From Dehalococcoidia bacterium (GTDB lineage: Bacteria; Chloroflexota; Dehalococcoidia; Bin125): a DNA stretch of 64,000 nt. Under the pieces are notes generated by a model. That model searched no databases. It saw only the letters and a program-made list of their open reading frames with translations, and had not been told where the DNA came from. The translations under genes and the position numbers were made by a program. This document shows positions 35,297 to 62,282 of this stretch, one piece after another. The stretch lies in NCBI GenBank assembly GCA_963555985.3, contig OY820591.1:2560001-2624000 (forward strand). Reading direction: 5' to 3'. The number at the start of each line of letters is the position of its first letter. Position 1 is the stretch's first letter.

Positions 35297-35297
35297 A

Positions 35298-38419: not shown

Positions 38420-38430
38420 CACAAATCTCC

Positions 38431-39532: not shown

Positions 39533-40546
39533 TCAAACCAACCCATACCCCCGATCCACTCCCTCCCCCTCACGCGACAACACACCCTCCTCCACCAACG
39601 CCTCCAGATGCGCCACCGTCTCCGACATCGCCATCGTCAACTGACCCCGATCATGCGCTCGCTTCGGAAACACCGCAATCGCAATCTCCTTGATCGTGCT
39701 CTTGCCCCCTGCCACCGCATCAACGATCTCGCCCCGCCGCACCTGGTGGTGCTCCAGAATCTCCCCCGCCCGTTCCGCCGGACGCTCAATGATCCGCTCA
39801 TGCGCCGGCAGCGCCACGCTCGGATTCAACTCCGCTACCAGCCCCAGCGACTGCTCGAACGCCGCCAACGGCGAGCGCTCGTCATCGGGCCACATCCCGA
39901 TGTGCGGCGTAATCCGCGCCAGCAGATGATCACCCGTGAACAGAATCTCCTCATCGCGGTCGAGCACGCACAGATGCCCGTCCGTATGTCCGGGCGTCCA
40001 CACCATCTCAAACTCACGCCCGCCGATCTCCAACACCTCGCCGCCCCGGATCAACGTCGGCTCCGGCGCAGGCAGATCGATCCCCTCCATCGCCTCCCGC
40101 ATCCGGCTGAACATCGAATCTTGCGGCTCGGCGCCGTTCGCAAACTCATGATCGTCGAGCGCCGCCGCCCAGCCCCCGGAGAACCGGCGCCGCGCCAACT
40201 CCGGGTTCATCGCCCGCATCATCTGCATCCGCCCCCAATCCGCCTCATGCACAAACACCTCAGTCCCGAACCGATGCTGCAACCAGCCCGCGAACGCCGT
40301 GTGATCCGGGTGATAGTGCGAAATGAACGCCGCCTCCAACCGCCGACCGTCCGTCAGCAGCGGCGCAATCTCCCGCTCAAGTATCTGCACCCCCTCAGGC
40401 GAGGGAAAACCCGTATCAAACATCGCCCAGCCACCGCCGGTCGCGATCAACCAGACATGCACATGCGCCAACGGCGGCGGCATCGGCAGCGTGAAGCGGC
40501 GCACGTTCGGCGGAAGCGGACTCTGGTCGTGAAAGGGAATCGTCAT
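39533..40546 (-). CDS. MBL-fold metallo-hydrolase with C-terminal winged helix
   Basis: DTG, SHYHPDH, TPGHTDGH, TGDHLL, LPAH. Confidence 0.9.
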   Translation of the reverse strand: MTIPFHDQSPLPPNVRRFTLPMPPPLAHVHVWLIATGGGWAMFDTGFPSPEGVQILEREIAPLLTDGRRLEAAFISHYHPDHTAFAGWLQHRFGTEVFVHEADWGRMQMMRAMNPELARRRFSGGWAAALDDHEFANGAEPQDSMFSRMREAMEGIDLPAPEPTLIRGGEVLEIGGREFEMVWTPGHTDGHLCVLDRDEEILFTGDHLLARITPHIGMWPDDERSPLAAFEQSLGLVAELNPSVALPAHERIIERPAERAGEILEHHQVRRGEIVDAVAGGKSTIKEIAIAVFPKRAHDRGQLTMAMSETVAHLEALVEEGVLSREGEGVDRGYGLV

Positions 40547-41691
40547 ACGTCCTCATCATCAACTGGAACCGGTGCGGCCTCAGCTTGGGCGGCAGTCTCA
40601 GCCAGGTTCGCCAGACCCTGACCCAGAGCGTATATGCCGAACAGCACTAAGGTCAGCGCGATCCCGGCGCTGAGCGTCATCCAGGGTGCCTCGATGATGT
40701 ACTGCCGACCGACCGCGATCATCCCTCCCCAGCTCGGGCCGGAACCGGTGGAACCGAGGAATTCCATCAGCGTGATCCCAATCACAGCCGCAATCGCAAC
40801 ATTGCGCAAGGTCAGGATCAGCCGGACGCGGTGGCGCAGGATCGGATCCAACACAGCGCTGCGCAGACTCAGCGAAGCGGGGGCCGAAGGTTCCAAGCTG
40901 CGGTAGAGCGGTGCCAGCGCAACCATCGCCAGACCCAGAACCATCCACAGATCGCCCCAGCCGCCCGCGAAAACGATCAGCGAGAGCAGCGCCAGCGGCG
41001 GCAGCGCTTGTGCGCCATCAAGCACGCTCCCAAGCGCCCGTTCCGCGATCTTCCCGCCCCGAATCCGCGCAATCAGACCAGCGCTCACCGCCGCCAGCAC
41101 CGCCGCCGCACCGCCAATCAGCAGCGTTAGCAGACCGAAATAGAGCGGTCGCCAGGCCCCGTCCACCACCAGCGCGTAGATATCCCGGCCCGCCCGATCC
41201 GTCCCGAACCAGTGAGACCCCGAGGGCTCGGCAAACGAAGCAATGACAAGCGGCCGATATGCGTTGCGGGAGAGTCCCACCTCCAGATCATGCAACACTC
41301 CGTCGCGCACTTCCACATGAGGCTCGCGCCCCGAAGTCAGCGTTTCAAGCAGCGCATCATGATCGATCAACTCATGCACGAACTCCTGAATCTCGCCCTG
41401 AACCCCGGCAGCGTCCGCAAACTCCCCATAGATGCTCGGATCGGAAAGACGCTCGCGCAGTTCAGCCGCACTGAGCTCCGCCGGCGACCCGTCCAGCGCA
41501 GCCGCGACCCGCTCATACACAAACTCGGGATTGAGCTGCTCGAAGATCGTGTTCGAGTCATAGCGCCCAATCCCCATCCAGCCGCCGCCTTCGCCGATCG
41601 CGCCCACCGCAAACACGCTGCACGCAAACAGGATCACGAATCCCAACGCGCCCAGCGGTTCACGTCGAATCAGCGAACGAATCCGGCTCAT
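40543..41691 (-). CDS. Divergent DppC/OppC-like ABC permease lacking the EAA motif
   Basis: HWFGTDRAGRDI, SWGGMI..GRQYI..PW; paralogue of 43403-44647 without EAARTIGA. Confidence 0.8.
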   Translation of the reverse strand: MSRIRSLIRREPLGALGFVILFACSVFAVGAIGEGGGWMGIGRYDSNTIFEQLNPEFVYERVAAALDGSPAELSAAELRERLSDPSIYGEFADAAGVQGEIQEFVHELIDHDALLETLTSGREPHVEVRDGVLHDLEVGLSRNAYRPLVIASFAEPSGSHWFGTDRAGRDIYALVVDGAWRPLYFGLLTLLIGGAAAVLAAVSAGLIARIRGGKIAERALGSVLDGAQALPPLALLSLIVFAGGWGDLWMVLGLAMVALAPLYRSLEPSAPASLSLRSAVLDPILRHRVRLILTLRNVAIAAVIGITLMEFLGSTGSGPSWGGMIAVGRQYIIEAPWMTLSAGIALTLVLFGIYALGQGLANLAETAAQAEAAPVPVDDEDV

Positions 41692-43184: not shown

Positions 43185-43300
43185 GGCCTCCGTTCGCCCT
43201 CCCCTCCACACCCCGCGAAACCCGCCATGACCACCCGAACCCACCTGGACAGAGCGAGACTAGTCCAGACGAACACCTCCAGTACCGCCCCAAACACCCC

Positions 43301-43352
43301 CGCAATCCAGCCAGATCCAGACAAATCTGGACTAATCCGGACTACCTCCGGC
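43301..43352 (+). repeat. 10-bp-period TC(C/T)(A/G)GAC array
   Basis: TCCAGACAAA TCTGGACTAA TCCGGACTAC CTCCGGC. Confidence 0.55.
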
Positions 43353-43402
43353 CCAATTCTCCGTCCACAGCCCCAAATTCACGCCCTCGCCAAGAAAAAC
43401 CC

Positions 43403-44647
43403 TCACTGGCTCCCGCGCAGGCGCGGATCAAAGACATCCCGCAGCGCATCGCCGAGCACATTGAAGCCAAACACCAGCGAAGTCAGCGCCAGACCCGCGA
43501 ACAGCGATGTCCACGGCGACTGCACGATGAACTGCCGTCCGTCCGCGATCATCTTGCCCCAGGACACATCCAGCGTCCCCAGACCCAAGAAGCTCAACGC
43601 CGCCTCAGCGAGGATGAACGCTCCGATCGTGATCGAGAAGATCACGATCAGCGGCGCGACGATGTTGGGCAGGATGTGCATCATCATGATGCGCAGATTG
43701 GTGGCGCCGATCGTCCGCGCTGCCTCGACGAATGGCATCTCGCGCAGCGCGATCACCGCGCCACGCACAATTCGCTGCACGGGCGCCACCGCTAATGCCG
43801 AGAGCGCCAGCGTCACCCAGAGCGCCGACGGCTCCGTCACAGCCCGCAGCAACAGCAGGAACACGATCGGCGGGAACGACTGAATCGCGTCCATGACTCG
43901 GTTGATCGCGAGGTCGATGTTGCCCCCGAATCCGCCCGAGATCAGCCCAATCAGCGTGCCCGCGACTACCCCCACCAGCGTCGCGAAGAAGCCGATGTAG
44001 AGCGACAGCCGTGCTCCCTCGGTCACCCGCGCGAACAGGTCGTGCCCGGCCCGGTCGGTGCCAAACCAGTGCTTGCCCGACGGCCCTTGCAGCGACGCGG
44101 TCGTGAGCGGCGTGTTCGTGCCTGTCGCGAGTAGATCATCAAAGTCGTGGATCGTGCCGTCGCGGATCTCGATCTGTACCGGATCCAGGTCTTCGCCGAG
44201 GTGAGTCAGGACCCTTCCTTCGACGATCAACCCCTCGACGTACGCCAGCATGTCGTCGATCACGCCCGACTCGGCCGCCAGATCGCCGTAGACATCGGGA
44301 TCAAGCAGCAACTCCCGCAGCCGGGCGTCGGAGATATCGGCCGGCTCGCCGTCCAGCGCGTTCGCCATCTTGTCGTCCGCGAAGTTCTGATTGGCGATCT
44401 TGAACACTTCCTGCGAGTCGTACCGCCCCAGCCCCAGCCAGCCGCCGCCGGAACCAACCGTGCCGATCGCGATCACGCTCCAGACCACGACCAGGATCAG
44501 GCCGGCCGCGCCGAGCGGCTTGCCGGTCATGAAGCTGCGCAGCGCGCCGCCCACCATCGCCAGACGCGAGCGCTCCTCCACCCGCAGACCTTGCGCAGCG
44601 GCAAACTCTTCCAGATTGGCGGCGGTCTCAGGCGCTTGATCGCTCAT
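43403..44647 (-). CDS. DppC/OppC-like ABC permease with extracytoplasmic insertion
   Basis: HWFGTDRAGHDLF, FVEAARTIGA, HILPN, EAALSFLGLG, FNVLGDALRDVFDPR. Confidence 0.93.
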   Translation of the reverse strand: MSDQAPETAANLEEFAAAQGLRVEERSRLAMVGGALRSFMTGKPLGAAGLILVVVWSVIAIGTVGSGGGWLGLGRYDSQEVFKIANQNFADDKMANALDGEPADISDARLRELLLDPDVYGDLAAESGVIDDMLAYVEGLIVEGRVLTHLGEDLDPVQIEIRDGTIHDFDDLLATGTNTPLTTASLQGPSGKHWFGTDRAGHDLFARVTEGARLSLYIGFFATLVGVVAGTLIGLISGGFGGNIDLAINRVMDAIQSFPPIVFLLLLRAVTEPSALWVTLALSALAVAPVQRIVRGAVIALREMPFVEAARTIGATNLRIMMMHILPNIVAPLIVIFSITIGAFILAEAALSFLGLGTLDVSWGKMIADGRQFIVQSPWTSLFAGLALTSLVFGFNVLGDALRDVFDPRLRGSQ

Positions 44648-44698
44648 CGGGCGTGTCCTTCGCAGATCGAGCGGACGCTTCGGCCGATCTTCATCGGC

Positions 44699-46324
44699 CT
44701 AGGTGTAGCGAATCCGGGGGTCAATCAGCGCGTAGCTGATGTCGATGATGATGTTGATGATGATCACGAACAGCGCCAGGAAGAACACCATCGTCTGCAC
44801 CACCGGAATATCCGCCTGGTTGATCCGCTGAATCAGCAGCAGGCCGATGCCGGGGATGTTGAACAGCAGCTCGAGGATAATGTTCCCGCCTACCAGCGCC
44901 GCGATCTGCAAGCCGAGAATGCTGAGCACGTTCACCATCGCGTTGCGCATCGCGTGCCGCCGGATCACCGTGCGCTCGCGCAGACCCTTCGACCAGGCCG
45001 TACGCACGTAGTCCTGGCGCAGCACCTCAAGCAGCTCCGAGCGCGTAATCCGCATCAGACCCGCGCCCGCGGCGATCCCGCCCGCAACGGCGGGAATGGA
45101 ATAGAGCGCGAAGAATCCGGGCACGGAAGTGAAGATGCTGCGCGCATCCTCCGAGGTCAGCGGAATCGACCACAGCCCCCCTTCCGAAATCCCGCCTGGC
45201 GTCACCACGAAGATCAACATCGTCGCAATCCAGAACGAGGGCGCGGCCAGCGCCAGGATCGCAAACCCGCGCAGCCCGTAGTCGAGCGGGCGGTCCTGCC
45301 GCATCGCCGAGAGAATGCCGACCGGGAACGCGACCAGAATCGCCACGATCAGCGCGTAGATATTGAGGTGCAGCGTGCGCGGCAACGCCCGCACGAAGAT
45401 GTCGAGCGAGTCCTCCTGCGTCTGGAACGAGGGGCGGAATTTCAGCCGCACCGTCTCCCAGAGGAACTCCCCGTACTGCACGCCCAACGGTTTGTCGATC
45501 CCCAGCCGATTGCGAATGTTCGCCTCGGTGATCTTCGTCGTCGGCATAATGATCGCGTGCGCCGGAATCTCAACAACCGTTCCGGCCTCGAGCGGCTCAG
45601 CCGGATCGATCTGCGGATTGACCTTCTCCGTCCGATCCAACGGACGATTCGTGGCAACCGCGATGCTCTCTAGGGTGTCCCCCGCGTTGGCAGTGAAAGT
45701 CGTCGCCGGTTCGAGCGGCGTCGTCGCCGTGAGCGCCCCGTCAGGATTCGTCGGCACCCCCGTTGGATTCGCGGCGAGGATGTCCGACGCCTCAATCCGG
45801 TTGACGTGCGCCAACTCTTCCAGGTTGATGCTCGTGCGTAAGGTCAGCGTCGTCCCCGTCGGCGCATAGGGTTTGCCCTGATAGGTGGGGAAATCGACCT
45901 CCGGGTTGCGATCCAACAGGATCTGCACCCCCTCCTTCGCATCTTCAGGCAGCGTGATCCGTTGCGACACCGCGAGCTGTTCCAGCAGCTGGCCGGGAAT
46001 CAGGATGATCCGCGTGCCGGGCCGCAGGTCGCCGCCCGCTTCGAGGTCGGGGTTGGCCCGGAGCAGTTCCGAGACGCTGACACCGTTGGCCAGCGCGATG
46101 CTGTCAATCGTGTCGCCCGTGATCACCCGGTGAGTGGTGTCCTCAATCTCAATCTGGCCGATGATCTCCGACTCTCGCGTCTCCGCCCCCTGGTTCTCAA
46201 GGTTGGAGAGTTTGCGCGTGACGAAATCCCCCGGCAGCGCGCGCAGGGCGAGAAAGAGGAGTGAGACGACCAGCCAGATCGTGGGAATCACGAGGATGAT
46301 GCGTCGGATCAGGTACTGCTGCAT
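44699..46324 (-). CDS. DppB/OppB-like ABC permease with inserted LysM domains
   Basis: YLIRRI, LPGD, LysM-like HRVITGDTIDSIA..NP..LRPGTRIIL and FTANAGDTLESIA..NP..LEAGTVVEIP, EVLRQDYVRTAWSKGL, YALIDPRIRY. Confidence 0.93.
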   Translation of the reverse strand: MQQYLIRRIILVIPTIWLVVSLLFLALRALPGDFVTRKLSNLENQGAETRESEIIGQIEIEDTTHRVITGDTIDSIALANGVSVSELLRANPDLEAGGDLRPGTRIILIPGQLLEQLAVSQRITLPEDAKEGVQILLDRNPEVDFPTYQGKPYAPTGTTLTLRTSINLEELAHVNRIEASDILAANPTGVPTNPDGALTATTPLEPATTFTANAGDTLESIAVATNRPLDRTEKVNPQIDPAEPLEAGTVVEIPAHAIIMPTTKITEANIRNRLGIDKPLGVQYGEFLWETVRLKFRPSFQTQEDSLDIFVRALPRTLHLNIYALIVAILVAFPVGILSAMRQDRPLDYGLRGFAILALAAPSFWIATMLIFVVTPGGISEGGLWSIPLTSEDARSIFTSVPGFFALYSIPAVAGGIAAGAGLMRITRSELLEVLRQDYVRTAWSKGLRERTVIRRHAMRNAMVNVLSILGLQIAALVGGNIILELLFNIPGIGLLLIQRINQADIPVVQTMVFFLALFVIIINIIIDISYALIDPRIRYT

Positions 46325-46371
46325 CTTGCCTCCGCGTCAGACTCGTCGCGCGGGCCGGTTGTTGCCGCTCG

Positions 46372-48402
46372 CTAGGCGGGGTACTCAGGGTGGCTGGTGT
46401 CGAGCCAGAGTTCGTCGACCAGCTTGTGCCCGCTGTGAGCGAACTGATAGCTGTCTGCGCTCGCCTGGTACCAAGGCCAGGAAGCCTCGTTGGAGACCGG
46501 GTTCATCACGCCCGGACCGGGCGAGATGCCTTCCCAGCCCCAGTCGGGGTGAGTACCGAGCTGGATCTGGATCACTTCGTCGGCGAGCACCTTCTTGGCT
46601 TCGAGGTCGAGCGTGATCTTCATCTCTTCGGCGAGTTCGGTCACGCGCGGGTTCTCGTAGCTGTAGAAGTTCAGCGAACCGCCCGGAATCAGCCCGGCCA
46701 GCCAACGGGTTGTGGGGTCGAGATCATCGGGCGGGTTGGTCCAGCACGGAATCTGGCCCTGGAAGGTACCCTCAACCAGACGCTGGAGGAGCACGGTGTA
46801 GGGGTCGACGCCGATATCGAACTCGATCCCCATCGCCGATTCGTACATGTTCTTGCTGGTCTCGACGATGCCGGGGTAGCGCTGCTCCCAGACATCAGGC
46901 GCGAAGAGGCCGATGCTGCGTCCGGTGTCGCGGAAGCCGGTGGCGTCGACCAACTCGTTGACCATTTGCAGCTCGGCGTCGCGGTCGGGCCGGAAGCCGG
47001 GGATTTCCGAGATTGATTCCTGGTCGGGCGTCCAGAAGGTGGAGAACCAAGGAACCTCCGGCAAGACGCTGGGCTTGGCTGAGCCGAGGTAAACAGCGTC
47101 GATCATCAGGTAGCGGTCGGTGGCGATGTGGTACGCGGCCCAGAGCCGGCGGTCGACCCAGGGATTGCCGAGTCCGTCTTCGCCCTGCCAATCCGGGTTG
47201 AAGTTGCCGCGGATCATGATCGTGAAGCCGCCGCCGACCGTGTTGCGCTGCATTTGCGGGAAGTCTTCAAGCAGGCGCTCGATGATGCTGATGTCGAGCC
47301 AGGCGCCGTCGAGCTCCTTGTTGCGCACCGCCGTTTCGACCGCGGTCTGCTCAAAGAGGTTGAACAGTTCCCAACTGTCCGCGTAGGGCAACTGCTGGCC
47401 CCAGGCGTCTTGCTTCCAGTAATCCGGGTTGCGGTCGGCGACGAAGACCTCGGTCGGTTCGTAGCGCTGGGCGATGTAGGGCCCAGAGCCGGCGATGCGG
47501 AGGGTGGAAGGGTCGTCGCGCCAGACATCGGAGTCGAGACCCCATTCCTGGATGCCCTCGGGTGCGGCCATCCAGCCGAACGGACGCAGGAAGGTGGCCG
47601 AGAGATAGGTGGAGTCGATGCCGTCGGATTGGGTGAAGAGGGTCTGATCGTCGGTCGCTTCCGAGACCGCAATCTTGCGCCAACTGGAGAGGCCGAGGAA
47701 GGACCCGTCCTCGGCGCCGGTCGAGTCCGTCCCAGCGGTGAGCCGATCGACGTTGAACTTGATGTCCTGGGCCGTGATGTTGCGTCCGCCCTCGGTGGGA
47801 TAGGAGTCATGCCAGCGGGCGGCCGGGTCGATGGTAAAGATGTAGGTGGTGTCGTCGGGGATTTCGGGCAAGGCCGCGATATCCGCCTCCATCTCCGACT
47901 TTTCCTTGTTCTTCCAGCGGATCAGGTTGTTGTAGAGCATCGAGTGCATGAACTGGGTGGGGCCGAAGACGCCGCGGTGCGGATCCCAGTAGTCATGCGT
48001 CTCGATCGTGGTCGCGCGGCGTGCGACGCCGCCGTACTGCGGGACAGGGCCTTCGGCGACGGCCGCTTGCTGTTGTTGCTGCGCCTGCTGTTCGGCGGCG
48101 GCCTGCTCTTGCTGCTCAGCCTGCTGCGCCTGCTGCTCGGCGGCGGCCTGCTCTTGCTGCTGCTGGGCTTGCTGCTGAGCGGCCTGCTGCTGTTGCTGCT
48201 GCATCGCCTGCTGCTGAGCGGCCTGCTGCCGTTGCTGTTGCTGCTGGGCGACCTGGGCGACGCTGTCGTCGTCATCGTCGTCGCCGCAGCCGACCAGGGC
48301 CAGACCGGCCGCGCCGACGCCGGCGCGGCCCGAGGCGCGCAAGAGCGCCCGCCGGCTCATTCGGTTCCGCCGCATTCGCTGCCAGTAGTTGCGCTCGCTC
48401 AT
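46372..48402 (-). CDS. Family 5 ABC solute-binding Tat-lipoprotein 1
   Basis: SRRALL Tat motif, LVGC lipobox, Gln-rich linker, YGG, DPH, GSGPY, RNPDYW. Confidence 0.9.
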   Translation of the reverse strand: MSERNYWQRMRRNRMSRRALLRASGRAGVGAAGLALVGCGDDDDDDSVAQVAQQQQQRQQAAQQQAMQQQQQQAAQQQAQQQQEQAAAEQQAQQAEQQEQAAAEQQAQQQQQAAVAEGPVPQYGGVARRATTIETHDYWDPHRGVFGPTQFMHSMLYNNLIRWKNKEKSEMEADIAALPEIPDDTTYIFTIDPAARWHDSYPTEGGRNITAQDIKFNVDRLTAGTDSTGAEDGSFLGLSSWRKIAVSEATDDQTLFTQSDGIDSTYLSATFLRPFGWMAAPEGIQEWGLDSDVWRDDPSTLRIAGSGPYIAQRYEPTEVFVADRNPDYWKQDAWGQQLPYADSWELFNLFEQTAVETAVRNKELDGAWLDISIIERLLEDFPQMQRNTVGGGFTIMIRGNFNPDWQGEDGLGNPWVDRRLWAAYHIATDRYLMIDAVYLGSAKPSVLPEVPWFSTFWTPDQESISEIPGFRPDRDAELQMVNELVDATGFRDTGRSIGLFAPDVWEQRYPGIVETSKNMYESAMGIEFDIGVDPYTVLLQRLVEGTFQGQIPCWTNPPDDLDPTTRWLAGLIPGGSLNFYSYENPRVTELAEEMKITLDLEAKKVLADEVIQIQLGTHPDWGWEGISPGPGVMNPVSNEASWPWYQASADSYQFAHSGHKLVDELWLDTSHPEYPA

Positions 48403-48440
48403 CGCAATCTCCTTCTCGCGTTTTCCTCGGCGTGCGCGAA

Positions 48441-50617: not shown

Positions 50618-50655
50618 TGCAACTCTCCTCCTGCGTTCGCCATGACGTGCGCCGA

Positions 50656-52978: not shown

Positions 52979-54991
52979 TTAGGCGGGGTAGTCCGGGTGG
53001 TTGACGTCAATCCAGGATTCGTCGTAGCGGTGGCTGGCGTGGGCGAACTGGAGGATGTCGTCGCTGTGGTGGACGAACGGCCACCAGAGCACCGGTGAGA
53101 TGCCGTTCATCACGCCGGGGATTGTGGTGATGCCGTCCAAGCCGTGGTCGGGATGCGTGCCGAGCAGGATCCGCTGCGCGGTGTGGGACATATCCCGCCG
53201 CTTCTCGCGATCGAGCGTGACGCGCATCTCGCGGGCCAGGTCCGCCATCGGCTCATAGCCGTAGAAGAGCGTGTTGACCGAGCCCTCGGGCGTGAAGAAG
53301 TCGTTATAGGGCGCGGTCGGGTCGAGCTCGGCGGGCGGATTGCCCCACTGCGGACCGCTGCCCGGGTAAGTCCCGTCGACGAAGCGCTGGAGAATCACCG
53401 TGTAGGGTTGCACGTCGAACTCGACCTCGAGGTCAAGCGCATTGCGGTACATCCCCACTTCGGTCTCCAGCACGCCGGGATAGGTGGACTCCCAGAGGTC
53501 GGGCGCGATCATGCGCAGACCGCGGCTGCGGTCGTAGCCGGAGGCGTCGAGCAGCGCCCGCGCTTCGGCGATGTCGGTCTCGCGGTCGGGCCGGAAGCCC
53601 GGCGTCTGCAAGAGTTCCTCATCGGGAATCGCCCAATAGGTGCTGTACCAGGGCGTGTCGTGCAGGCCTGAGGGCTTGCCTGAGCCGAGATAGACCGTAT
53701 CGATCATCAGGTACGGGTCGACGGCGATACCCAGGGACTTGGCGAAGCGTCGGTCGAGCCAGGGGTTGCCCAAACCGTCCTCACCAGGCCAGTCTGGGTT
53801 GTAGTTGACCAGCGTGATGATCGTGAACCCGAACGCGATCTGGCCGTGGTTGTGGTCCGGGAAGTCTTCAACAATGCCCTCGGCCTGGAGCGTCGTGAGT
53901 GGGAAGCGCCCGTTGAGGATCTCTTTGCCGCGGTAGGCGGCGTCGATCGTGGTCGAGTCCTCCATGTTCGCCAGGGTGACGGAGTCGTAATAGGGCAGCG
54001 GTTGGCCGTCGAGCCCCATCTTCCAGTAGTCGGGGTTGCGGATCATGCTCAGGCCGATATCGGGGTCGTAGCTCTGGGGAATAAACATCCCGGTGCCGGA
54101 GGAGAGCTCGATGTTGCCCGCCTCATCGCGCCAGCGGTCGCCGAACTCACGGATCGCCTCGGGGCTGGTGATCCAGCTGAAGGGTCGCAGCGGGACGCCG
54201 ATCCAAGTCGCATCGGGGCCGTCCGTCCTAGCGACCCAGGTGGTGTCGTCGGGCACGTCCATCGAAGCGGTGCGGCGGAACGCGCCCGAGCTGAGGAAGG
54301 TGCCGTCATCGGCGCCGGTCGCATCCACCGCGTCGATCTGGCGCTGGTAGTTGACGCGGATGTCCTCGGATGTCACCAGCCGCCCGCCCTCGGTCGGATA
54401 CTGATCCCAGAAGCGCGCGCCCTGGTCAATGCTGAAGATGTAGGTCTCGTCGTCAGGAATCTCCGGCAGCGAGGCGATGTCTGGCTCGGCGAGGTCCTGT
54501 TCCTTGTTGCGATAGCGGATGAGGTAGTTCATGTAGAACCCCATCCAGAACTGGGTCGTGCCGAACACGCCGCGGCCCGGGTCGAAGTAGTCGTGCGTCG
54601 CCGCCGGCGTGGAGAAGGTCAGATCGCCGCCGCGGACGATCTCCGACACCATCGCCTGCTGTTGTTCTTCAGCATCGGCGACCGTCTGTTCCTGCTGGTC
54701 GGCCTGCTCTGCCTGCTGCTCGGCGGCCGCCTCCTGTTGCTCTTGCCGAGCTTGCTGCTGCGCGGCCTGCTGCTGTTGTCGCTGCTGGGCCTGCTGTTGC
54801 ATCGCCTGCTGTTGCTGCTGACGCTGCGCGGCGGATTGGGAAACCGACTGCTGACTGTCGTCGTCATCGTCGCCGCAGCCGACCAGCGCCAATCCGGCCG
54901 CGCCGACGCCGGCGCGACCCGAGGCGCGCAAGAGCGCACGCCTGCTCATTTGCTTCCACCGCATTCGCTGCCAGTAGTTTCGCTCACTCAT
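52979..54991 (-). CDS. Family 5 ABC solute-binding Tat-lipoprotein 4
   Basis: True start MSERNYW at 54991 (GGAGAGG upstream); SRRALL, LVGC, RNPDYW. Confidence 0.9.
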   Translation of the reverse strand: MSERNYWQRMRWKQMSRRALLRASGRAGVGAAGLALVGCGDDDDDSQQSVSQSAAQRQQQQQAMQQQAQQRQQQQAAQQQARQEQQEAAAEQQAEQADQQEQTVADAEEQQQAMVSEIVRGGDLTFSTPAATHDYFDPGRGVFGTTQFWMGFYMNYLIRYRNKEQDLAEPDIASLPEIPDDETYIFSIDQGARFWDQYPTEGGRLVTSEDIRVNYQRQIDAVDATGADDGTFLSSGAFRRTASMDVPDDTTWVARTDGPDATWIGVPLRPFSWITSPEAIREFGDRWRDEAGNIELSSGTGMFIPQSYDPDIGLSMIRNPDYWKMGLDGQPLPYYDSVTLANMEDSTTIDAAYRGKEILNGRFPLTTLQAEGIVEDFPDHNHGQIAFGFTIITLVNYNPDWPGEDGLGNPWLDRRFAKSLGIAVDPYLMIDTVYLGSGKPSGLHDTPWYSTYWAIPDEELLQTPGFRPDRETDIAEARALLDASGYDRSRGLRMIAPDLWESTYPGVLETEVGMYRNALDLEVEFDVQPYTVILQRFVDGTYPGSGPQWGNPPAELDPTAPYNDFFTPEGSVNTLFYGYEPMADLAREMRVTLDREKRRDMSHTAQRILLGTHPDHGLDGITTIPGVMNGISPVLWWPFVHHSDDILQFAHASHRYDESWIDVNHPDYPA

Positions 54992-55067
54992 GGAACCTCT
55001 CCTCGGAGCTGCATTGGTCGAACCTCGATTGCGGAAGGCTAGTGATTTTGAATCGGCCTCTCCGCCG

Positions 55068-55105
55068 CAAACAAGAGAGGGGGCGGCAACTGCCGCCCCC
55101 TCTTC
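55068..55105 (-). terminator. Rho-independent terminator after SBP5
   Basis: Minus strand AGAGGGGGCGGCA-GT-TGCCGCCCCCTCT followed by CTTGTTT. Confidence 0.7.
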
Positions 55106-55125
55106 ATACCGGCACCCAGCGGTAG

Positions 55126-57144
55126 CTAGGCCGGGTAGTCGGGGTGGGTGGTGTCGAGCCAGGCTTCGTCGTAGCGGTGTGAGGCGTGGGCGAACTGGAG
55201 CGTGTCGGCGGGGCGTTCCACGTACGGCCACCAGATCGCGGGCGAGATCCCGTTCATCACCGCCGGTGCGAAGCCGAGCCCGTCGACGCCGTGGTCGGGG
55301 TGAGTGGCGAGCAGGATGCGCTGGGCTTCGTAAGCCATGTCCCGCCGTGCTTCCCGATCGAGCGTGACCCGCATCTCCTCGGCGAGCTCGGTGAAGGGCT
55401 GGTACTCGTAGGAGAGGTTGTTGGTCGCGCCGCCGGGCGTGAGGTTCTGGAGGTAGGAGGTGGTGGGATCAAGGTCGTCGGGCGGGTTGGTCCACTGCGG
55501 GCCGCCGCCCGGGTAGGTCTTGGACACCCAGCGCTGGAGCAACACGGTGTAGGGCTGGATGTTGAAGTTGACTTCGATCCCCAGCGCCTCCTCGTACATG
55601 TTCTTCTCGGTTTCGAGGATGCCCTGGTAGGTCTGCTCCCAGATGTCGGGGGCGTAGAGGATCAGGGGACGATCCTTGTCGTATCCGGAAGCGTCGAGGT
55701 AGGCGCGGGCATCGGCGATGTCGGCGTTGCGGTCGGGCCGATAACCGGGCGTGGCGAGCAGTTCTTCCTCGGGAATCGCCCAGTACTGGTTGAACCAAGG
55801 CGTGTGTTCCTGGCCGGAGGGCTTGCCGGAGCCGAGATAGACGGCGTCGATCATGAGGTAGCGGTCAACCGCGAGGTGGAGGGCGTAGCAGAAGCGGCGG
55901 TCGAGGTAGGGATTGCCCAGACCGTCCTCGCCGGGCCAGTCGGGGTTGTAGTTGAAGATGCCGGTGATGATCGTGAAGCCGAAAGCGACCGTGCCTTGCG
56001 GGTGGTCGGGGAAGTCGGCGCCGATCGTTTCCGCCTGGAGGCTCGAGAGCGGGAAGCCGCCGACGTCGATTTCGTTGCTGCGGTAGGCGGCCTCGACGGC
56101 AGTGGGATCGGTCAGGTTCTTCATCCCGATCCCGTCCATGTAGGGCAGCGGTTGGCCGTCGGCGCCCATCTTCCAGTAGTTGTCGTTGCGCATCATGTCG
56201 AGCCCGAGATCGGGGTCGTAGTTAGTCGGGATGTAGGGGCCGGTGCCGGAGGAGAGTTCGACATTGCCGGCTTCGTCGCGCCAGCGGTCGCCGAATTCCT
56301 GGATCGCCTCGGGCGAAGTGATCCAGGAGAAGGGACGCAGGACCGGACTGCCGAGGTAGGTGGCGTCGATGCCGTCGCTCTTGGCGATGAAGATGGTCTC
56401 GTCGGGCGTCTCCATCGAGGCGGTCTTCTGGAAGGCGGACGCGCCGAGATAGGTGCCGTCAGGAGCGCCGGTGGCGTCGGTGGCGTCGATCTGGCGCTGG
56501 AAGTTCGCGCGGATGTCCTCGGAGGTGACAAGCCGGCCGCCTTCGGTGGGATATTGATCCCAGAAGCGAGCGCCGCGGTCGATGGAGAAGATGTAGGTGA
56601 CTTCGTCGGGCTGTTCGGGCAGCGAGGCAATGTCGCTCTCGAGGATGCCCTTCTCCTTGTTCTGGTAACGGATGAGGTAGTTCATGTAGAACCCCATCCA
56701 GAACTGGGTCGGGCCGAAGACCGCGCGGTGCGGGTCGAAGTAGTCGTGCGTGGCCGCCGGCGTGGAGAAGCGCAATGTGCCGCCGCGGGTGATATCGGAA
56801 GCGGCCACTTGCTGCTGCTGTTGTTCGGCGGCCTCGGCAACCGTCTGCTCTTGCTGCTCAGCTTGCTGGGCGGCCTGCTCGGCGGCTTGCTGCTGCTGCG
56901 CCTGTTGCTGCATGGCCGGCTGCTGTTGCTGCTGCTCGGCCTGCTGCTGCGCGGCGGCTTGCCGTTGCTGCTGTTGCTGCTGCGCCTGCGCCGCAGTCTG
57001 CTGACCGTCATCGTCATCGTCGCCGCAGCCGACCAGGGCCAGACCCGCCGCGCCGATGCCGGCGCGTCCCGATGCGCGCAAGAGCGCCCGCCGGCTCATC
57101 CGATTGCGCCGCATCCGTTGCCAGTAGTTGCGTTCGCTTGACAT
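55126..57144 (-). CDS. Family 5 ABC solute-binding Tat-lipoprotein 5
   Basis: SRRALL, LVGC, RGGTL, FDPH, SGTGPY. Confidence 0.9.
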   Translation of the reverse strand: MSSERNYWQRMRRNRMSRRALLRASGRAGIGAAGLALVGCGDDDDDGQQTAAQAQQQQQQRQAAAQQQAEQQQQQPAMQQQAQQQQAAEQAAQQAEQQEQTVAEAAEQQQQQVAASDITRGGTLRFSTPAATHDYFDPHRAVFGPTQFWMGFYMNYLIRYQNKEKGILESDIASLPEQPDEVTYIFSIDRGARFWDQYPTEGGRLVTSEDIRANFQRQIDATDATGAPDGTYLGASAFQKTASMETPDETIFIAKSDGIDATYLGSPVLRPFSWITSPEAIQEFGDRWRDEAGNVELSSGTGPYIPTNYDPDLGLDMMRNDNYWKMGADGQPLPYMDGIGMKNLTDPTAVEAAYRSNEIDVGGFPLSSLQAETIGADFPDHPQGTVAFGFTIITGIFNYNPDWPGEDGLGNPYLDRRFCYALHLAVDRYLMIDAVYLGSGKPSGQEHTPWFNQYWAIPEEELLATPGYRPDRNADIADARAYLDASGYDKDRPLILYAPDIWEQTYQGILETEKNMYEEALGIEVNFNIQPYTVLLQRWVSKTYPGGGPQWTNPPDDLDPTTSYLQNLTPGGATNNLSYEYQPFTELAEEMRVTLDREARRDMAYEAQRILLATHPDHGVDGLGFAPAVMNGISPAIWWPYVERPADTLQFAHASHRYDEAWLDTTHPDYPA

Positions 57145-57272
57145 GTCGCTTGCTCCCATCGCTAGGTTTCGCAGATTGTAGTAGGACGCAACTGAACGTG
57201 CACGTCAAAATCGGTCCACCGCCGGAAGCCGCAGCGAACTGCGGGAAGACGAACGAAACGGATAGCGATCGC

Positions 57273-58517
57273 CTATCGCGCCCCGCGCAGACGCGGATCG
57301 AGCACGTCGCGGAGCGCGTCACCCAAGACATTGAACCCGAACACCAGCGAGGTCAGGGCGAGACCGGCAAAAAGCGACGTCCAGGGCGAATAGACGATGA
57401 ACTGCCGCCCATCGGCGATCATCTTGCCCCAGGAGACATCGAGCGTGCCCAGACCGAGGAAACTGAGCGCGGCTTCGGCGAGGATGAAGGCGCCGATGGT
57501 GATGGAGAAGATCACGATCAGCGGCGCGAAGAGGTTGGGCAGAATGTGCAGGCCCATGATCCGAACGGAGGAAGCGCCGATCGTGCGCGCCGCTTCGATG
57601 TAGGGCAGCTCGCGAATCTGGAGCACGCTGCCGCGCACGATCCGGTTCGTCGGCGCAATCGCAAGCACCGCCAGCGCGAGCGTGACCCAGAGCGCCGAGG
57701 GGTCGGTCAGCGAGGCGATCAGGAGCAGGAAGACGATCGGCGGATAGGACTGAATGGCGTCCATGATGCGGTTGACGGAGAGGTCGACCGTGCCGCCCAG
57801 CGAGCCGGCGACCAGGCCGATCACAGTACCGGCGCCGACGCCGATCAGCGTGGCGAAGAAACCAATGTAGAGCGATAGCCGCGCGCCCTCGAAGACGCGG
57901 GCGAAAAGATCATGACCGGCGCGGTCGGTGCCGAACCAGTGCGCGCCTGAGGGGTCCTGCAACGAGGCGGCGGTCAGCGGGTTGTCCGTACCTGTCGCAA
58001 GCAGTGCGTCAACATCGACTATCTTGCCGCCGTCGATTTCAATCTGTTCGGCGTCGACGAGCGTATCGAGCAGCGTGCCTTCCTCAACGTGTTCGAGGGC
58101 GTACGCGACCATTTCGGCGGCGACGCCCTGATCGGTAGCGGCGTCTCCGTAGATTGCCGGGTCGGAGACGATTGCGCGCAGTTCGGCGTCAGAGAGCTCC
58201 GCGTCGAGGCCGTCAAGGGCATTCGCGATCTTGTCGTCGGCGTAGGTGGCCGAGGCGACTTCAAAGACAGTGCGCGAGTCGTAGCGGCCAACGCCCAACC
58301 AGCCGCCGCCGTCGCCAACAGTACCGATAGCGATCACGCTCCAGAAGACGACGAGCAGGAGTCCGGCTGCGCCGAGCCGCTTGGTGCGCGTGAAATCGAC
58401 CAGCCAGCGCAGGGCGCGGCGCAGCCCGCCCGCGTCGTCTACACGCAGACCCTGAGAGACGGCGAATTCTTCGAGCGACTCGTCGATCGCTGTGCTGCCG
58501 GCAGGTGACTCGCTCAT
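57273..58517 (-). CDS. DppC/OppC-like ABC permease with extracytoplasmic insertion
   Basis: HWFGTDRAGHDLF, YIEAARTIGA, HILPN, GDALRDVLDPR. Confidence 0.93.
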   Translation of the reverse strand: MSESPAGSTAIDESLEEFAVSQGLRVDDAGGLRRALRWLVDFTRTKRLGAAGLLLVVFWSVIAIGTVGDGGGWLGVGRYDSRTVFEVASATYADDKIANALDGLDAELSDAELRAIVSDPAIYGDAATDQGVAAEMVAYALEHVEEGTLLDTLVDAEQIEIDGGKIVDVDALLATGTDNPLTAASLQDPSGAHWFGTDRAGHDLFARVFEGARLSLYIGFFATLIGVGAGTVIGLVAGSLGGTVDLSVNRIMDAIQSYPPIVFLLLIASLTDPSALWVTLALAVLAIAPTNRIVRGSVLQIRELPYIEAARTIGASSVRIMGLHILPNLFAPLIVIFSITIGAFILAEAALSFLGLGTLDVSWGKMIADGRQFIVYSPWTSLFAGLALTSLVFGFNVLGDALRDVLDPRLRGAR

Positions 58518-58544
58518 GTAGAGACCTCGTGCCTCGATGCCAGG

Positions 58545-60026
58545 CTAGGCGTAACGGATGCGCGGGTCGATCAGCGCGTAGCTGATGTCGACCAGGATGT
58601 TGATGACGATCACAAAGAGGGCGAGGAAAAAGACGATCGTGGCGATCACGGGCGTGTCGGCTTGGTAGATGCGCTGCAAGAGGGCGAGACCGACGCCGGG
58701 AATGTTGAACAACACCTCCAGAATGATGTTCCCGCCGACCAGCGCCGCCGCCTGGAGTCCGAACACGCTGAGCACGGGCACCATCGCATTGCGCAGCGCG
58801 TGGCGGCGGATCACGGAGCGCTCGCGCAGACCTTTCGACCAGGCTGTGCGGACGTAATCCTGACGCAAGACTTCAAGCAGCTCGGAGCGGGTGATGCGCA
58901 TCAACCCAGCTCCGGCGGCGATGCCGCCGGCGACGGCAGGGATGGTATAGAGCGCAAAGAACCCGGGTACCGAGGTGAAGATGCTGCGCGCCTCCTCTTC
59001 CGCGAGCGGAATCGACCAGAGACCGCCGTCGAAGAGCGAACCGGGCGAGACCACGAAGATCAACATCGTCGCGGTCCAGAAGGGCGGCGCGGCGAGCGCG
59101 AAGATCGCGAAGCCGCGCAGCAGGTAATCGGGCGCGCGGTCCTGCCGCATGGCGGAGTAGACGCCCACCGGGAGCGCGACGATCACGGCCACGATCAGGG
59201 CGTAGATGTTGAGATGGAGCGTACGCGGAAGCGTGCGCAGGAAGATGTCCATCGACGGTTCATTGGTCTGGAACGACGGCCGGAACTTGAGCCGGATCGT
59301 GTCCCAGATGAACTCGATGTACTGGATGCCGAGCGGCTTGTCGAGTCCCAGTCGGTGCTTCACCGAACTCTCGGTGATCTCGCGCGTAGGAGCGATGATC
59401 GTCGCACCGGGCAGCAGCGGTGTCTCGGCGGTCAGTGAACCGTCTTCGTTAGACGGTGTGCCGACGAGATTGACGTTCAGATAATCCTCAGCGGTGACAC
59501 GGTTGACCTTCGCAAGTTCATTAATGGTCGTGGACTCGCGCAGGGTCAGGATGCTGCCGCCGGGCGCGTAGGGTTCGCCAGCGAACGTGGGGAAGTCAAT
59601 CTGGGGGTTGCGCTCGATCAGCAACGCCACGCCCTGATCGGTCTCCTCAGGCAGCGCGAGCCGCTGCTGCTTGGAGATCACCGAGAGCAGTTGGCCGTCG
59701 ATGATGATGAGGTTGCTGCCGGGCCGCAGCTCGGAGTCGACGTCATAGCGCGGATTGAGTCCGAGGATGTGGTCGGCGCCGATCCCGTACTGGAGCGCGA
59801 GCGACTCGATCGTGTCTCCGGCCACGACGCGGTGGAGGGTGCGATCAGCCTCGATTTCGCCGACGATCTCGGCCGGCTGCGTGGTCGCGCCGGAAGCTTC
59901 GAGGTTGGAAAGTTTGATCGTGACGTAGTCGCCGGGCAGGAGGTTGACGCCCAAGAAGAGCAGGGAGATCACCAGCCAAAGGGTGGGGATCACGAGCAGA
60001 ATGCGGCGAATCAGGTACTTCTGCAT
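58545..60026 (-). CDS. DppB/OppB-like ABC permease with inserted LysM domain(s)
   Basis: YLIRRIL, LPGD, HRVVAGDTIESLALQYGI...NP..LRPGSNLII, DYVRTAWSKGL, DPRIRY. Confidence 0.93.
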   Translation of the reverse strand: MQKYLIRRILLVIPTLWLVISLLFLGVNLLPGDYVTIKLSNLEASGATTQPAEIVGEIEADRTLHRVVAGDTIESLALQYGIGADHILGLNPRYDVDSELRPGSNLIIIDGQLLSVISKQQRLALPEETDQGVALLIERNPQIDFPTFAGEPYAPGGSILTLRESTTINELAKVNRVTAEDYLNVNLVGTPSNEDGSLTAETPLLPGATIIAPTREITESSVKHRLGLDKPLGIQYIEFIWDTIRLKFRPSFQTNEPSMDIFLRTLPRTLHLNIYALIVAVIVALPVGVYSAMRQDRAPDYLLRGFAIFALAAPPFWTATMLIFVVSPGSLFDGGLWSIPLAEEEARSIFTSVPGFFALYTIPAVAGGIAAGAGLMRITRSELLEVLRQDYVRTAWSKGLRERSVIRRHALRNAMVPVLSVFGLQAAALVGGNIILEVLFNIPGVGLALLQRIYQADTPVIATIVFFLALFVIVINILVDISYALIDPRIRYA

Positions 60027-60065
60027 CTCGCGCTTCGGCCCCTCCTAAGGTGAGTCTTGCAACCC

Positions 60066-60207
60066 TGCTCTCCCCCGCGCTGCGGGGCGAGCGGTCGCGG
60101 AGCGACGGAGGGGGGTTGCCGCAATCAGGCTCGCAGACGCCTCAGCGGCCGCACCGGACCCCTCTCAGTCCCTTCGGGACAGCTCCCCCCGCAGTGCGGG
60201 GGGAGCG
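60066..60207. repeat. Convergent pair of family A REP-like palindromes
   Basis: CTCTCCCCCGCGCTGCGGGGCGAGCGGTCGCGGAGCGACGGAGGGGGG and GGACCCCTCTCAGTCCCTTCGGGACAGCTCCCCCCGCAGTGCGGGGGGAG. Confidence 0.8.
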
Positions 60208-60233
60208 CTTGATTTGTCGTCGGCGCGGCCTTC

Positions 60234-62282
60234 CTAGGCCTGGAACTGCGGATGGGTCGTGTCCATCCAGGTCTGGTCGTGGTTGTGCGAGTCGTGCGCG
60301 AACTGCCAGGTGTCCTCGTCGCGGTTGACGTACGGCCACCAGATCGTCGGCACCACGCCGTTCATCACGCCGAACCAACTGAAGATGCCGTCGAGACCAT
60401 GTTCGCTGTTGGGGTAGCCGCCGCCTTCGTCGACGCCGAGGCCGATCCGCTGCACTTCGCGAGCCATGTCGCGCCGCTGCTCGGTGTCGAGCGTAACCGT
60501 CATCTTGTCGATGATGTCCTCAACCGGCTGGTAGTTGTACTGCGTCACGTTGGAAGCGCCGCCACGCTTCAGCGCGAGCCCGAACTGCGCAGTCGGATCG
60601 AGGTCGGCGGGCGGGTTCGTCCAGGTCGGCGCGCGGCCGGGGAAGGTCTTGTTGTCGAACCGGTCCTGCATCACCGTGTACGGCTGGAGATCGAGCTCGA
60701 CGTTGAAGCCGACCGCCTCGCTGTACATGTTCCGAGTCGTCTCGGAGATGCCCGGGTAGGTCTGCTCCCAGATGTCCGGGATGTAGATCGTGACCGAGCG
60801 GCTGGTGTCGAAGCCGGACGCGGCGATCAGCTCGCGGCAGAGCTGGATATCTGCCTCGCGGTCGATCCGGTAGCCGGGGAAGGTCCGCAGTTCGTCCGCC
60901 GGGATCGTCCAGTAGGTGCTGAACCAGGGGCAGTAGTGGGTGCCGGACGGCTTCGCCGCGCCGAGGTACACGGCGTCGATCAGCAGGTCGCGGTCGACCG
61001 CGACGTGCATCGCATAGGCGAAGCGGCGGTCGAGGTACGGGTTGCCGAGCCCGTCGGAGCCTTCCCAGCCCGGCTCATAGGTGCCGGTCACGGTCACGAT
61101 CGTGTAGCCGAACGCGCCTTCCGCGACCGGATGGTCGGGGAAGTCGCCGGTCAGCTCCTCCACCTGCACCGATGAGAGCGGGAAGCCGCCGATGTCGATC
61201 TGCTGGCCGCGATAGGCGGCGTCCACCGCCGTCGGGTCGGTCAGGTTGACGAAGTCGATCGCGTCCGGATACGGCAACTGTTGGCCGTCCGCCCCGATTT
61301 TCCAGTAGTCCGGGTTGCGCTCGAGGTAGATCCCGATGTCCGGGTCGTAGCTGAGCGGGATGTAGGGGCCGGAACCGGACGAGAGCTCCACGTTCGCGGT
61401 CTCGTCGCGCCAGCGGTCGCCGAACTCCTGGATGCCCTCAGGCGAAGTGAACCACGAGAATGGGCGCAGAATGGTGCCGCCGAGGTAGGTGGCGTCCGCG
61501 CCGTCGGTGCGGGCGATGAAAGTCTGGTCGTCAGGGACTTCCTTCGTGGCCGTCTTGCGGAAAGCGTCCTGACCGCGGAAACGCGCGTCGGGGTTGCCTT
61601 CGTTGTCGAGCGCCGCGATCTGGCGGTCGAAGTTGATGTCGATGTCCTGCGCGGTGACAGCGCGGCCGCCCTCGGTCGGGTAGCGGTCCCACCAATGCGC
61701 GCCCTGGTCGATGCTGAAGATGTAGGTCTCTTCGTCGGGCAACTCCGGCAGCGAAGCGAGGTCCGACTCCATGATCCCCTTCTCTTTGTTCGCCCAGCGG
61801 ATGAGGTAGTTCATGTAGAACCCCATCCAGTAGACGGTGGGACCAAAGACGCCGCGGTGCGGGTCGAAGAAGTCGTGCGTGGCCGCGGGCGTCGAGAACT
61901 TCAGCGTGCCCCCGTAGGTGCGGGCCGCAACCATCTGCTGCTCTTGCGCCTGCTGCTGCGCCTGTTGTTGGGCGGCCTGTTGCTGCGTCTGCTCTTGCTG
62001 CTCAGCTTGGGCGGCCTGCTGTTCGGCCTGTTGCTGCGCCTGCTGTTGGGCGGCCTGTTGCTGAGCCTGCTCTTGCGCCTGCTGCTGCATCGCCTGTTGC
62101 TGGGCTTGCTGCTGAGCCTGCTGCTGCGCGACCGCGGCCGGCTGACTGTCGTCGTCATCGTCGCCGCAGCCGACCAGCGCCAGACCAGCCGCGCCCACGC
62201 CGGCGCGTCCCGACGCCCGCAAGAGCGCACGCCTGCTCACCCGCGATCGTCGCATGCGCTGCCAATAGTTTCGCTCGCTCAT
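60234..62282 (-). CDS. Family 5 ABC solute-binding Tat-lipoprotein 6
   Basis: GGAGG RBS, MSERNYW, SRRALL, LVGC, YGGTL, SGSGPY, RNPDYW. Confidence 0.9.
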   Translation of the reverse strand: MSERNYWQRMRRSRVSRRALLRASGRAGVGAAGLALVGCGDDDDDSQPAAVAQQQAQQQAQQQAMQQQAQEQAQQQAAQQQAQQQAEQQAAQAEQQEQTQQQAAQQQAQQQAQEQQMVAARTYGGTLKFSTPAATHDFFDPHRGVFGPTVYWMGFYMNYLIRWANKEKGIMESDLASLPELPDEETYIFSIDQGAHWWDRYPTEGGRAVTAQDIDINFDRQIAALDNEGNPDARFRGQDAFRKTATKEVPDDQTFIARTDGADATYLGGTILRPFSWFTSPEGIQEFGDRWRDETANVELSSGSGPYIPLSYDPDIGIYLERNPDYWKIGADGQQLPYPDAIDFVNLTDPTAVDAAYRGQQIDIGGFPLSSVQVEELTGDFPDHPVAEGAFGYTIVTVTGTYEPGWEGSDGLGNPYLDRRFAYAMHVAVDRDLLIDAVYLGAAKPSGTHYCPWFSTYWTIPADELRTFPGYRIDREADIQLCRELIAASGFDTSRSVTIYIPDIWEQTYPGISETTRNMYSEAVGFNVELDLQPYTVMQDRFDNKTFPGRAPTWTNPPADLDPTAQFGLALKRGGASNVTQYNYQPVEDIIDKMTVTLDTEQRRDMAREVQRIGLGVDEGGGYPNSEHGLDGIFSWFGVMNGVVPTIWWPYVNRDEDTWQFAHDSHNHDQTWMDTTHPQFQA

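Follow-up and report, generated by a model that had tools for sequence, protein, structure and literature searches.

What does an array of LysM-type modules do inside the membrane subunit of a nutrient importer? This question is raised by a locus at positions 40543-62282 of a 64,000-nt stretch of the genome of a Dehalococcoidia bacterium (contig OY820591.1 of assembly GCA_963555985.3; G000:C1:2560001-2624000), which is hereafter called the window. The assembly comprises 3.33 Mb and has a completeness of 96.4% and a contamination estimate of 7.5%. The locus encodes three pairs of permease subunits of the DppB and DppC types together with six solute-binding proteins (SBPs), and it appears to represent a variant, specific to one lineage, of the type I ATP-binding cassette (ABC) importers of the Opp/Dpp (peptide/nickel, family 5) group, in which DppB bears LysM modules. 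Its host is a peptidoglycan-making, presumably monoderm member of the Dehalococcoidia. Four of the subunits (DppB1, DppB2, DppC1 and DppC2) present BPD_transp_1 scores well within the Pfam family (gathering score of 26.4 bits), and the predicted models of DppB2 and DppC1 show the six-helix fold of Opp/Dpp permeases; the DppB1C1 and DppB2C2 heterodimers look transport-competent. Our tentative answer, to which we assign a probability of roughly 40%, is that the modules belong to a crown that binds glycan of the cell's own wall and forms a docking face for tethered receptors.

Ectodomains of the permease subunits

The initial annotation of the window, made from the letters alone, had described a long insertion behind the first transmembrane helix (TM1) of all three DppB proteins. 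Alignment with two canonical DppBs recovered this insertion: every copy possesses ~175 additional amino acids (aa), and DppB2, which had been credited with one more LysM than its paralogues, is longer by a further 48 aa and matches the Pfam LysM family (PF01476) in two stretches. The inserts span 180-230 aa and are composed of three to four beta-alpha-alpha-beta modules. The gathering score for LysM (20.9 bits) is exceeded in two of the three proteins, DppB1 and DppB2. DppB3 falls just below it with 19.4 bits; its insert nevertheless shares 41% identity with the DppB1 insert (E = 2.4e-54). The claim that the inserts consist of LysM-like repeats can be maintained for modules 1, 3 and 4 but not, at the same strength, for module 2. 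Modules 1 and 4 exceed the Pfam cut-off, and profile comparison relates module 1 to module 4 with a probability of 97.8% and to module 3 with a probability of 95.9%; its similarity to module 2 is weak (80.2% over 28 columns), which makes module 2 at best a very degenerate LysM.

We modeled DppB2 with AlphaFold using an alignment of 66 rows (mean predicted local distance difference test score, pLDDT, of 88.9; predicted template modeling score of 0.74). The insert of this predicted structure contains four beta-alpha-alpha-beta units, the fold of LysM, with block pLDDT values of 84-95. Foldseek and VIA searches were then conducted with the whole DppB2 model, the insert being embedded in the permease throughout. 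Foldseek retrieved Ecp6 (E = 1.7e-3 over 219 columns), a LysM pair from Thermus (4uz2) and CERK1 (E = 1.1e-2). The confident model, the Pfam scores and these matches agree with the earlier suggestion that the insert folds as LysM. The model also matched the solved DppB and OppB chains of Escherichia coli and the OppB chain of Mycobacterium tuberculosis (Foldseek E = 5e-12). In VIA, the best 50 matches all concerned the membrane domain, which superposes on 8j5q_B (Z = 27.5), 8z21_A (Z = 27.0) and 8z1v_A (Z = 26.7). Only ordinary DppB-type clusters were found in the ESM Atlas, and these are uninformative as to the insert.

The insert lies at a site whose role in E. coli has been described. In phmmer alignments, residues 2-38 of DppB1 correspond to residues 2-38 of E. 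coli DppB and residues 221-492 to residues 51-337 (8z1v_A); 182 residues of DppB1 (39-220) occupy the place of residues 39-50 of the E. coli protein. According to the available text of PMC12136057, residues 32-62 of E. coli DppB constitute a periplasmic "scoop motif" with a helix-loop-helix structure, which is disordered in the absence of DppA and, once docked, fills the cleft between the DppA lobes; E41 and R42 form salt bridges with DppA residues that otherwise hold the dipeptide. The LysM array is thus located within the scoop loop, a stretch of which it replaces. In the E. coli DppB structure this TM1-TM2 loop faces the periplasm, so that the array is extracytoplasmic by homology, as had been anticipated. 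Since the insert replaces a loop that contacts the receptor, a docking role is at least as likely as the tethering to a polymer that had been put forward. In an alignment of 49 sequences, the loop opens with three residues that never vary (N41, L42 and E43).

An insertion in the DppC partners, located before the HWFGTD motif, had also been noted and is present in all three copies, which possess ~107 extra columns between TM1 and this motif when aligned to one canonical DppC. In the model of DppC1, the insert is formed of helices (residues 90-155) and a hairpin (residues 159-168), with block pLDDT values of 68-96. Foldseek matched the whole DppC1 model to OppC and DppC chains at E values of ~1e-12 (8j5s_C at 2.7e-12), no match covering the helical insert, and we found no Pfam family for this domain. 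The DppC insert was detected in 95 clusters, all of DppC-like proteins of ~410 aa. Across 25 related loci, the two inserts travel together: for 45 of 45 open reading frames (ORFs) that encode an insert-bearing DppB, the next ORF is of the DppC type and measures 410-417 aa where complete. In one related genome (L002:11513-12744), the DppC1 orthologue is split over two frames (176 and 171 aa), which could reflect a frameshift or an assembly error.

Distribution of the architecture

We searched for the insert of DppB1 in the genomes of the order, which consists of a single family. Matches at E <= 1e-10 were found in 50 of 65 genomes, mostly with two or three copies of the insert. By genus, it was found in 37/37, 9/9, 2/2 and 1/3 genomes, and in none of five other genera. 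In a sample of 401 genomes of the phylum, strong matches were restricted to the genome of the window and one other member of the family. This sample yielded 17 further matches that were weak (E = 5.7e-6 to 9.1e-4); six of these were considered as permeases and rejected, as they match the LysM columns only and lie in frames with 0-2 hydrophobic segments.

The search was extended to 1.84 billion representative sequences, which returned 491 matches at E <= 1e-3 and seven at E <= 1e-30. The best 150 of the 491 include ten DppB-type proteins (P0014, P0051-57, P0065 and P0081). In the part of the matches listed in full, the others cover the LysM columns only, and a Pfam scan of three of these revealed generic multi-LysM proteins. 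When proteins were clustered at 90%, 46 of 50 matches carried PF01476 and PF00528 together, and the only names given by the source were "ABC transporter permease subunit" and "peptide/nickel transport system permease protein". Several long tblastn matches in Proteobacteria were evaluated as bigger inserts and discarded: one (L070) is a canonical DppB of 318 aa joined to the next DppC, and in four others (L048, L052, L058 and L062) the DppB ORFs listed are of canonical length (318-348 aa).

Among the genomes searched, the LysM-in-DppB architecture is confined to one family of Dehalococcoidia. Across 48 homologues, the identity of the insert to that of DppB1 has a median of 62% and the open frames are intact. 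No NCBIfam equivalog cut-off was passed by the permease; the best-scoring model, Opp2B, reached 234.1 of the 350 bits required. A full-text search of the literature, with subscription journals mostly outside its scope, yielded no description of a LysM within the permease of an ABC importer, in line with the proposal that the architecture was undescribed.

Receptors, ATPases and the third pair

The six binding proteins are, as had been counted before, paralogous and co-oriented: all are encoded on the minus strand and exceed the SBP_bac_5 (PF00496) gathering score (80.4-122.8 against 32.4 bits). By pattern match, all six carry an SRRALL motif and the lipobox LVGC, whose cysteine is immediately followed by five or six consecutive aspartates. 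The tethers are 77-82 aa long and composed mostly of Q, A and E, about half of the residues being glutamine (28-42 Q). No match to a Tat-signal hidden Markov model appears among the NCBIfam matches listed for these proteins, so that we treat them, on the motifs, as putative Tat-exported lipoproteins. The mature domains are 47-69% identical to one another; their best match in the PDB is OppA (E = 1.6e-7) and they pass no NCBIfam cut-off. A search of the genome with the mature domain of SBP1 gave ten matches, of which six fall inside the window; at least one close copy (58% identity; G000:C1:600512-602146, and others listed) lies far from any insert-bearing permease.

This SBP subfamily is represented by 4-10 close copies in insert-bearing genomes and by 1-2 distant copies (31-41% identity) in 15 insert-free genomes. 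The distant copies are orphans without Q-rich linkers in the five insert-free genomes examined, and those of sister genera present shorter, acidic and proline-rich linkers instead. As these genomes are kin, the correlation between the expansion of the SBPs and the presence of the insert is suggestive only.

Two observations count against the picture of one complete system: there is no ATPase gene at the transporter locus (Pfam, across the window) and pair 3 lacks both EAA loops. Three oligo_HPY ATPase matches were identified genome-wide, all far from the locus. A DppD/F-type pair (ABC_tran and oligo_HPY) is located 1.1 Mb away, at G000:C1:1482310-1484623 (L084:8310-10623), where it is flanked by genes for a class II (Thr/Ala-type) tRNA synthetase and LepA, with no permease or SBP gene adjoining. 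The third ATPase (L085:7213-8214) adjoins a luciferase-like monooxygenase. Since the genome has 51 BPD_transp_1 matches against these three ATPases, a few DppD/F-type ATPases probably serve many permease pairs. Contigs 1 and 11 share identically scoring BPD_transp_1 matches (G000:C1:459993-460568 and G000:C11:10154-10729), which may indicate a duplicated or redundant contig, consistent with the contamination estimate of 7.5%.

The EAA coupling helix is present in pairs 1 and 2 (QDYVRTAWSKGLRER..; ..EAARTIGA..). In DppB3, a 20-aa deletion takes out QDYVRTAW...RRHA, RTA coupling helix included, and the EAA loop of DppC3 is shortened by two deletions (9 and 4 aa). These loops are absent from all four DppB3 and all three DppC3 sequences aligned (three and two orthologues, respectively), the lengths of the deletions being different, and the coupling region is also missing from three of the representative proteins (P0052-54). 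The BPD_transp_1 match of DppB3 is partial (28.3 bits) and that of DppC3 is below the gathering score (18.3 bits). Relative to DppB1, the membrane part of DppB3 is 39% identical, which is close to the value of its insert (41%); for DppB2, the values are 79% in the membrane part and 51% in the insert. Pair 3 was found in three of the 25 related loci (L003, L013 and L015), and a third copy, at 39-44% identity, occurs in no fewer than 12 of the 50 genomes with the insert. Pair 3 reads as a non-transporting derivative.

All the long frames with a family match between positions 40543 and 62282 lie on the minus strand (Table 1). The order of transcription is SBP1, DppB1, DppC1, SBP2-SBP6, DppB2, DppC2, DppB3 and DppC3, followed by a metallo-beta-lactamase (MBL)-fold hydrolase, a short-chain dehydrogenase/reductase (SDR) and a Zn-dependent dehydrogenase (Zn-ADH). 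DppB3 was scanned with Pfam as 41688-43244; its start codon in Table 1 was picked from the alignment with its orthologues.

Table 1. Features of the transporter locus, with positions given in the window
Feature	Position	Strand	Evidence
SBP1, family-5 solute-binding lipoprotein	60234..62282	-	SBP_bac_5 103.9 bits; SRRALL at residue 16; LVGC; 82 aa Q-rich linker
DppB1, 493 aa, three-module LysM-type insert	58545..60026	-	BPD_transp_1 128.1 bits; LysM 31.7 bits
DppB1 insert, residues 39-220	59367..59912	-	phmmer alignment to 8z1v_A
DppB1 Pfam LysM stretch, residues 65-108	59703-59834	-	31.7 bits
DppC1, 414 aa, helical ectodomain	57273..58517	-	BPD_transp_1 94.5 bits; model pLDDT 86.2
DppC1 insert, ~residues 66-190, mostly helical	57948..58322	-	~107 extra alignment columns; no Pfam family
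SBP2	55126..57159	-	SBP_bac_5 107.3 bits; Tat motif, lipobox, linker
SBP3	52979..54991	-	SBP_bac_5 80.4 bits; Tat motif, lipobox, linker
SBP4	50794..52806	-	SBP_bac_5 91.4 bits; Tat motif, lipobox, linker
SBP5	48593..50617	-	SBP_bac_5 122.8 bits; Tat motif, lipobox, linker
SBP6	46372..48402	-	SBP_bac_5 86.8 bits; Tat motif, lipobox, linker
DppB2, 541 aa, four-module insert	44699..46324	-	BPD_transp_1 130.4 bits; LysM 54.2 bits, 2 stretches
DppB2 insert, ~residues 39-268	45521..46210	-	DSSP of model; modules 63-109, 111-155, 159-211, 208-253
DppC2, 414 aa, helical insert at ~44078-44452	43403..44647	-	BPD_transp_1 88.5 bits; alignment
DppB3, LysM-type insert at ~42453-42998, without EAA coupling helix	41688..43139	-	BPD_transp_1 28.3 bits; LysM 19.4 bits
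DppC3, helical insert kept, degenerate EAA loop	40543..41691	-	BPD_transp_1 18.3 bits, under the cut-off
MBL-fold hydrolase	39533-40546	-	Pfam; 4 nt overlap with DppC3 stop
SDR	38431-39378	-	Pfam
Zn-ADH	37307-38422	-	Pfam

The three trailing enzymes often follow the transporter in related loci as well. The SDR scores 217.7 bits against a cut-off of 215 for the glucose 1-dehydrogenase subfamily, and the MBL-fold hydrolase matches uncharacterised structures only (2zo4, E = 5.7e-42); from their family matches, these enzymes appear generic and give no substrate assignment. A methyltransferase gene in divergent orientation is found upstream of the transporter locus. Elsewhere in the window, two genes of the PF00144 beta-lactamase family (247 bits each) are encoded on the plus strand at 21117-22331 and 23679-24842, with a 296-aa frame without family between them and then a 1058-aa frame with a weak Eco57I-methylase match. 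A run of minus-strand genes at 30551-37204 includes one for an 889-aa protein, in which CoA-transferase III is matched in two stretches, and others for a Fic-domain protein, an acyl-CoA dehydrogenase and a GPP34-family protein. The strongest LysM matches of the genome are located ~96 kb past the end of the window (G000:C1:2719735-2723339), in a 939-aa frame with eight LysM matches and an adjoining 405-aa frame with two on the opposite strand.

Possible roles of the proposed crown and comparison with known systems

We infer the following arrangement from the sequences and models. Six or more lipid-anchored SBPs on long Q-rich tethers would serve DppB1C1 and DppB2C2, and these two pairs would borrow their ATPases from the distant, stand-alone DppD/F pair. 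The LysM array of DppB and the helical domain of DppC (~110 aa) would together surround the mouth of the pore as an extracytoplasmic crown. With its LysM modules, this crown would grip glycan strands in the wall of the cell itself, and its surface would be where the tethered SBPs dock. Pair 3, which has lost its coupling loops and kept the ectodomains, would have ceased to transport. Because this pair is without the loops that couple to the ATPase but has kept its ectodomains, the crown may well have a function apart from transport. The presence of the architecture in 50 of the 65 genomes of the family further suggests that it is under selection.

A wall to which the crown could bind is expected in this bacterium: the genome possesses four transpeptidase loci and six Mur-ligase matches, with one cluster at 1.768-1.776 Mb, which indicates that it makes peptidoglycan. 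In this respect, and in having LysM, it differs from the sponge SAR202 genomes, which, in the portion of PMC6306507 that was accessible, are without peptidoglycan genes, with LysM (CBM50) confined to other classes of Chloroflexi. Chloroflexota are regarded as monoderm in the accessible text of PMC13319060.

Several points weigh against a crown that both binds the wall and receives the SBPs. The G-D-T motif of module 1 is variable among the 49 aligned sequences, its D being replaced by N, E, S or K, and module 2 is barely LysM-like. A domain packed on a membrane subunit may fall short of the wall. Being located at the receptor interface, the array could act purely on the SBPs and have lost glycan binding, and insertion in the scoop loop may merely reflect the tolerance of this loop. 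The contact between the DppB and DppC inserts is one that we infer, and the sharing of ATPases is deduced from gene counts. Finally, the genomes that carry the architecture are kin and provide non-independent evidence of selection.

The chief rival explanation is that the LysM fold has been recruited for protein-protein contacts and, together with the DppC domain, recognises, orients or gates the SBPs, by analogy with the contact of the MalF P2 domain with MalE, and binds no glycan. This would account for the position of the insert exactly in the loop that contacts the receptor cleft, for the invariance of N41, L42 and E43 in 49 sequences, for the partly degenerate LysM motif and for the 4-10 copies of the SBPs found with the insert, against 1-2 distant copies in the 15 genomes without it. 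However, modules 1 and 4 still score above the Pfam cut-off for LysM, and docking alone fails to explain why a pair that is without EAA loops and unable to transport has kept its ectodomains. We consider this explanation somewhat unlikely. A bolder version of the preferred crown reading, in which the crown is an organelle-like peptidoglycan anchor and landing pad for SBPs and pair 3 is a wall-binding pseudo-transporter (a dock, a sensor or a tie between wall and membrane), strikes us as unlikely in a clearer sense.

Alternatively, the array could bind a nutrient that contains N-acetylglucosamine (GlcNAc), such as muropeptides or chitin oligomers, and either concentrate it at the pore or take it from the SBP. 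LysM is a module that binds GlcNAc glycans, and some family-5 binding proteins bind sugars; the PDB matches of the SBPs include an alpha-galactoside binder, 6epy. The genome has a single GH3 (NagZ-like) gene, and an SDR at the glucose 1-dehydrogenase cut-off and an MBL-fold hydrolase trail the transporter, all of which would be compatible with such a substrate. Nevertheless, no NagA, GH18 or GH20 was found in this 96.4% complete genome, which makes chitin or GlcNAc oligomers less likely as nutrients and counts against the capture of chitin fragments that the initial annotation had envisaged. The conserved locus (the window and related loci) was likewise found to contain no glycoside hydrolase or amino-sugar gene, and the SBPs match no characterised family, OppA being their best match. 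We view substrate capture as decidedly unlikely.

That the inserts are neutral or decaying passengers, resulting for instance from a domain-shuffling accident, is highly improbable: a scoop that is mobile and goes unseen in the E. coli structure unless DppA is bound (available text of PMC12136057) may tolerate insertions, but the frames are intact with a median insert identity of 62% across 48 homologues, three paralogues are kept per genome, the inserts yield confident models and the insert is kept even where the membrane part of its pair degenerates.

The scoop is the sole part of the Opp/Dpp translocator that reaches into the SBP, and its replacement by LysM modules, with a matched domain in DppC, would constitute a natural experiment on how receptor docking and substrate hand-over may be rebuilt. 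LysM modules at the usual contact site between pump and receptor are an arrangement that we found described nowhere in the literature searched. If the array binds peptidoglycan, the cell wall would determine where this ABC importer sits. The EAA-less pair, for its part, would show that a permease pair can, exceptionally, be retained for the sake of its ectodomain. The architecture is conserved across a family of uncultured Dehalococcoidia with greatly enlarged receptor sets and probably matters for the range of compounds that they take up.

The closest known systems are E. coli DppABCDF and M. tuberculosis OppABCD/DppABCD (cryo-EM structures 8z1v-8z1z, 8j5q and 8wd9), which present the same six-helix fold (Z = 26-27.5). 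The locus resembles them in its DppB/DppC heterodimers, in the RTA-type coupling helix of pairs 1 and 2 and in its family-5 SBPs. In contrast to E. coli Dpp, however, LysM-type modules amounting to 182-230 aa stand in for a 12-residue stretch of the scoop loop, and DppC has gained an extra helical domain. The locus further differs from it in having no ATPase gene, six receptors for two apparently working pairs and a third pair without EAA loops.

The maltose transporter of E. coli, MalFGK2, offers a second comparison. Its MalF subunit possesses a P2 domain that contacts MalE, and the 2r6g and 4ki0 chains were among the structural matches of DppC1 and DppB2. In both type I importers, a permease loop accommodates a sizeable folded domain on the extracytoplasmic side with, in our case putatively, a face on which the receptor docks. 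P2 is flanked by other helices, however, is not a LysM, is found in one subunit only and has no proposed role at the wall. With respect to the ATPases, MsiK is the shared "orphan" ATPase of actinobacterial sugar importers, and here too many permease pairs stand against few ATPase genes, with a stand-alone ATPase pair. The difference is that the candidate shared ATPase would be a DppD/F-type heterodimer.

The LysM array itself resembles Ecp6 (4b8v) and CERK1 (4eby), in which three LysM modules are packed together (219-230 columns). These are a secreted effector and the ectodomain of a receptor kinase, their root-mean-square deviation to the DppB2 array is high (18 A), and their binding of chitin is not transferable to the DppB array by fold alone. 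Finally, a PilO-LysM fusion in Litorilinea, and TsaP, have been proposed to use LysM as a wall anchor, in the accessible text of PMC13319060. As in the importer described here, LysM is fused to a membrane-embedded machine in Chloroflexota. As far as that text describes them, PilO-LysM and TsaP are accessory or alignment proteins with a terminal LysM, whereas here the array is located inside the membrane subunit of a transporter.

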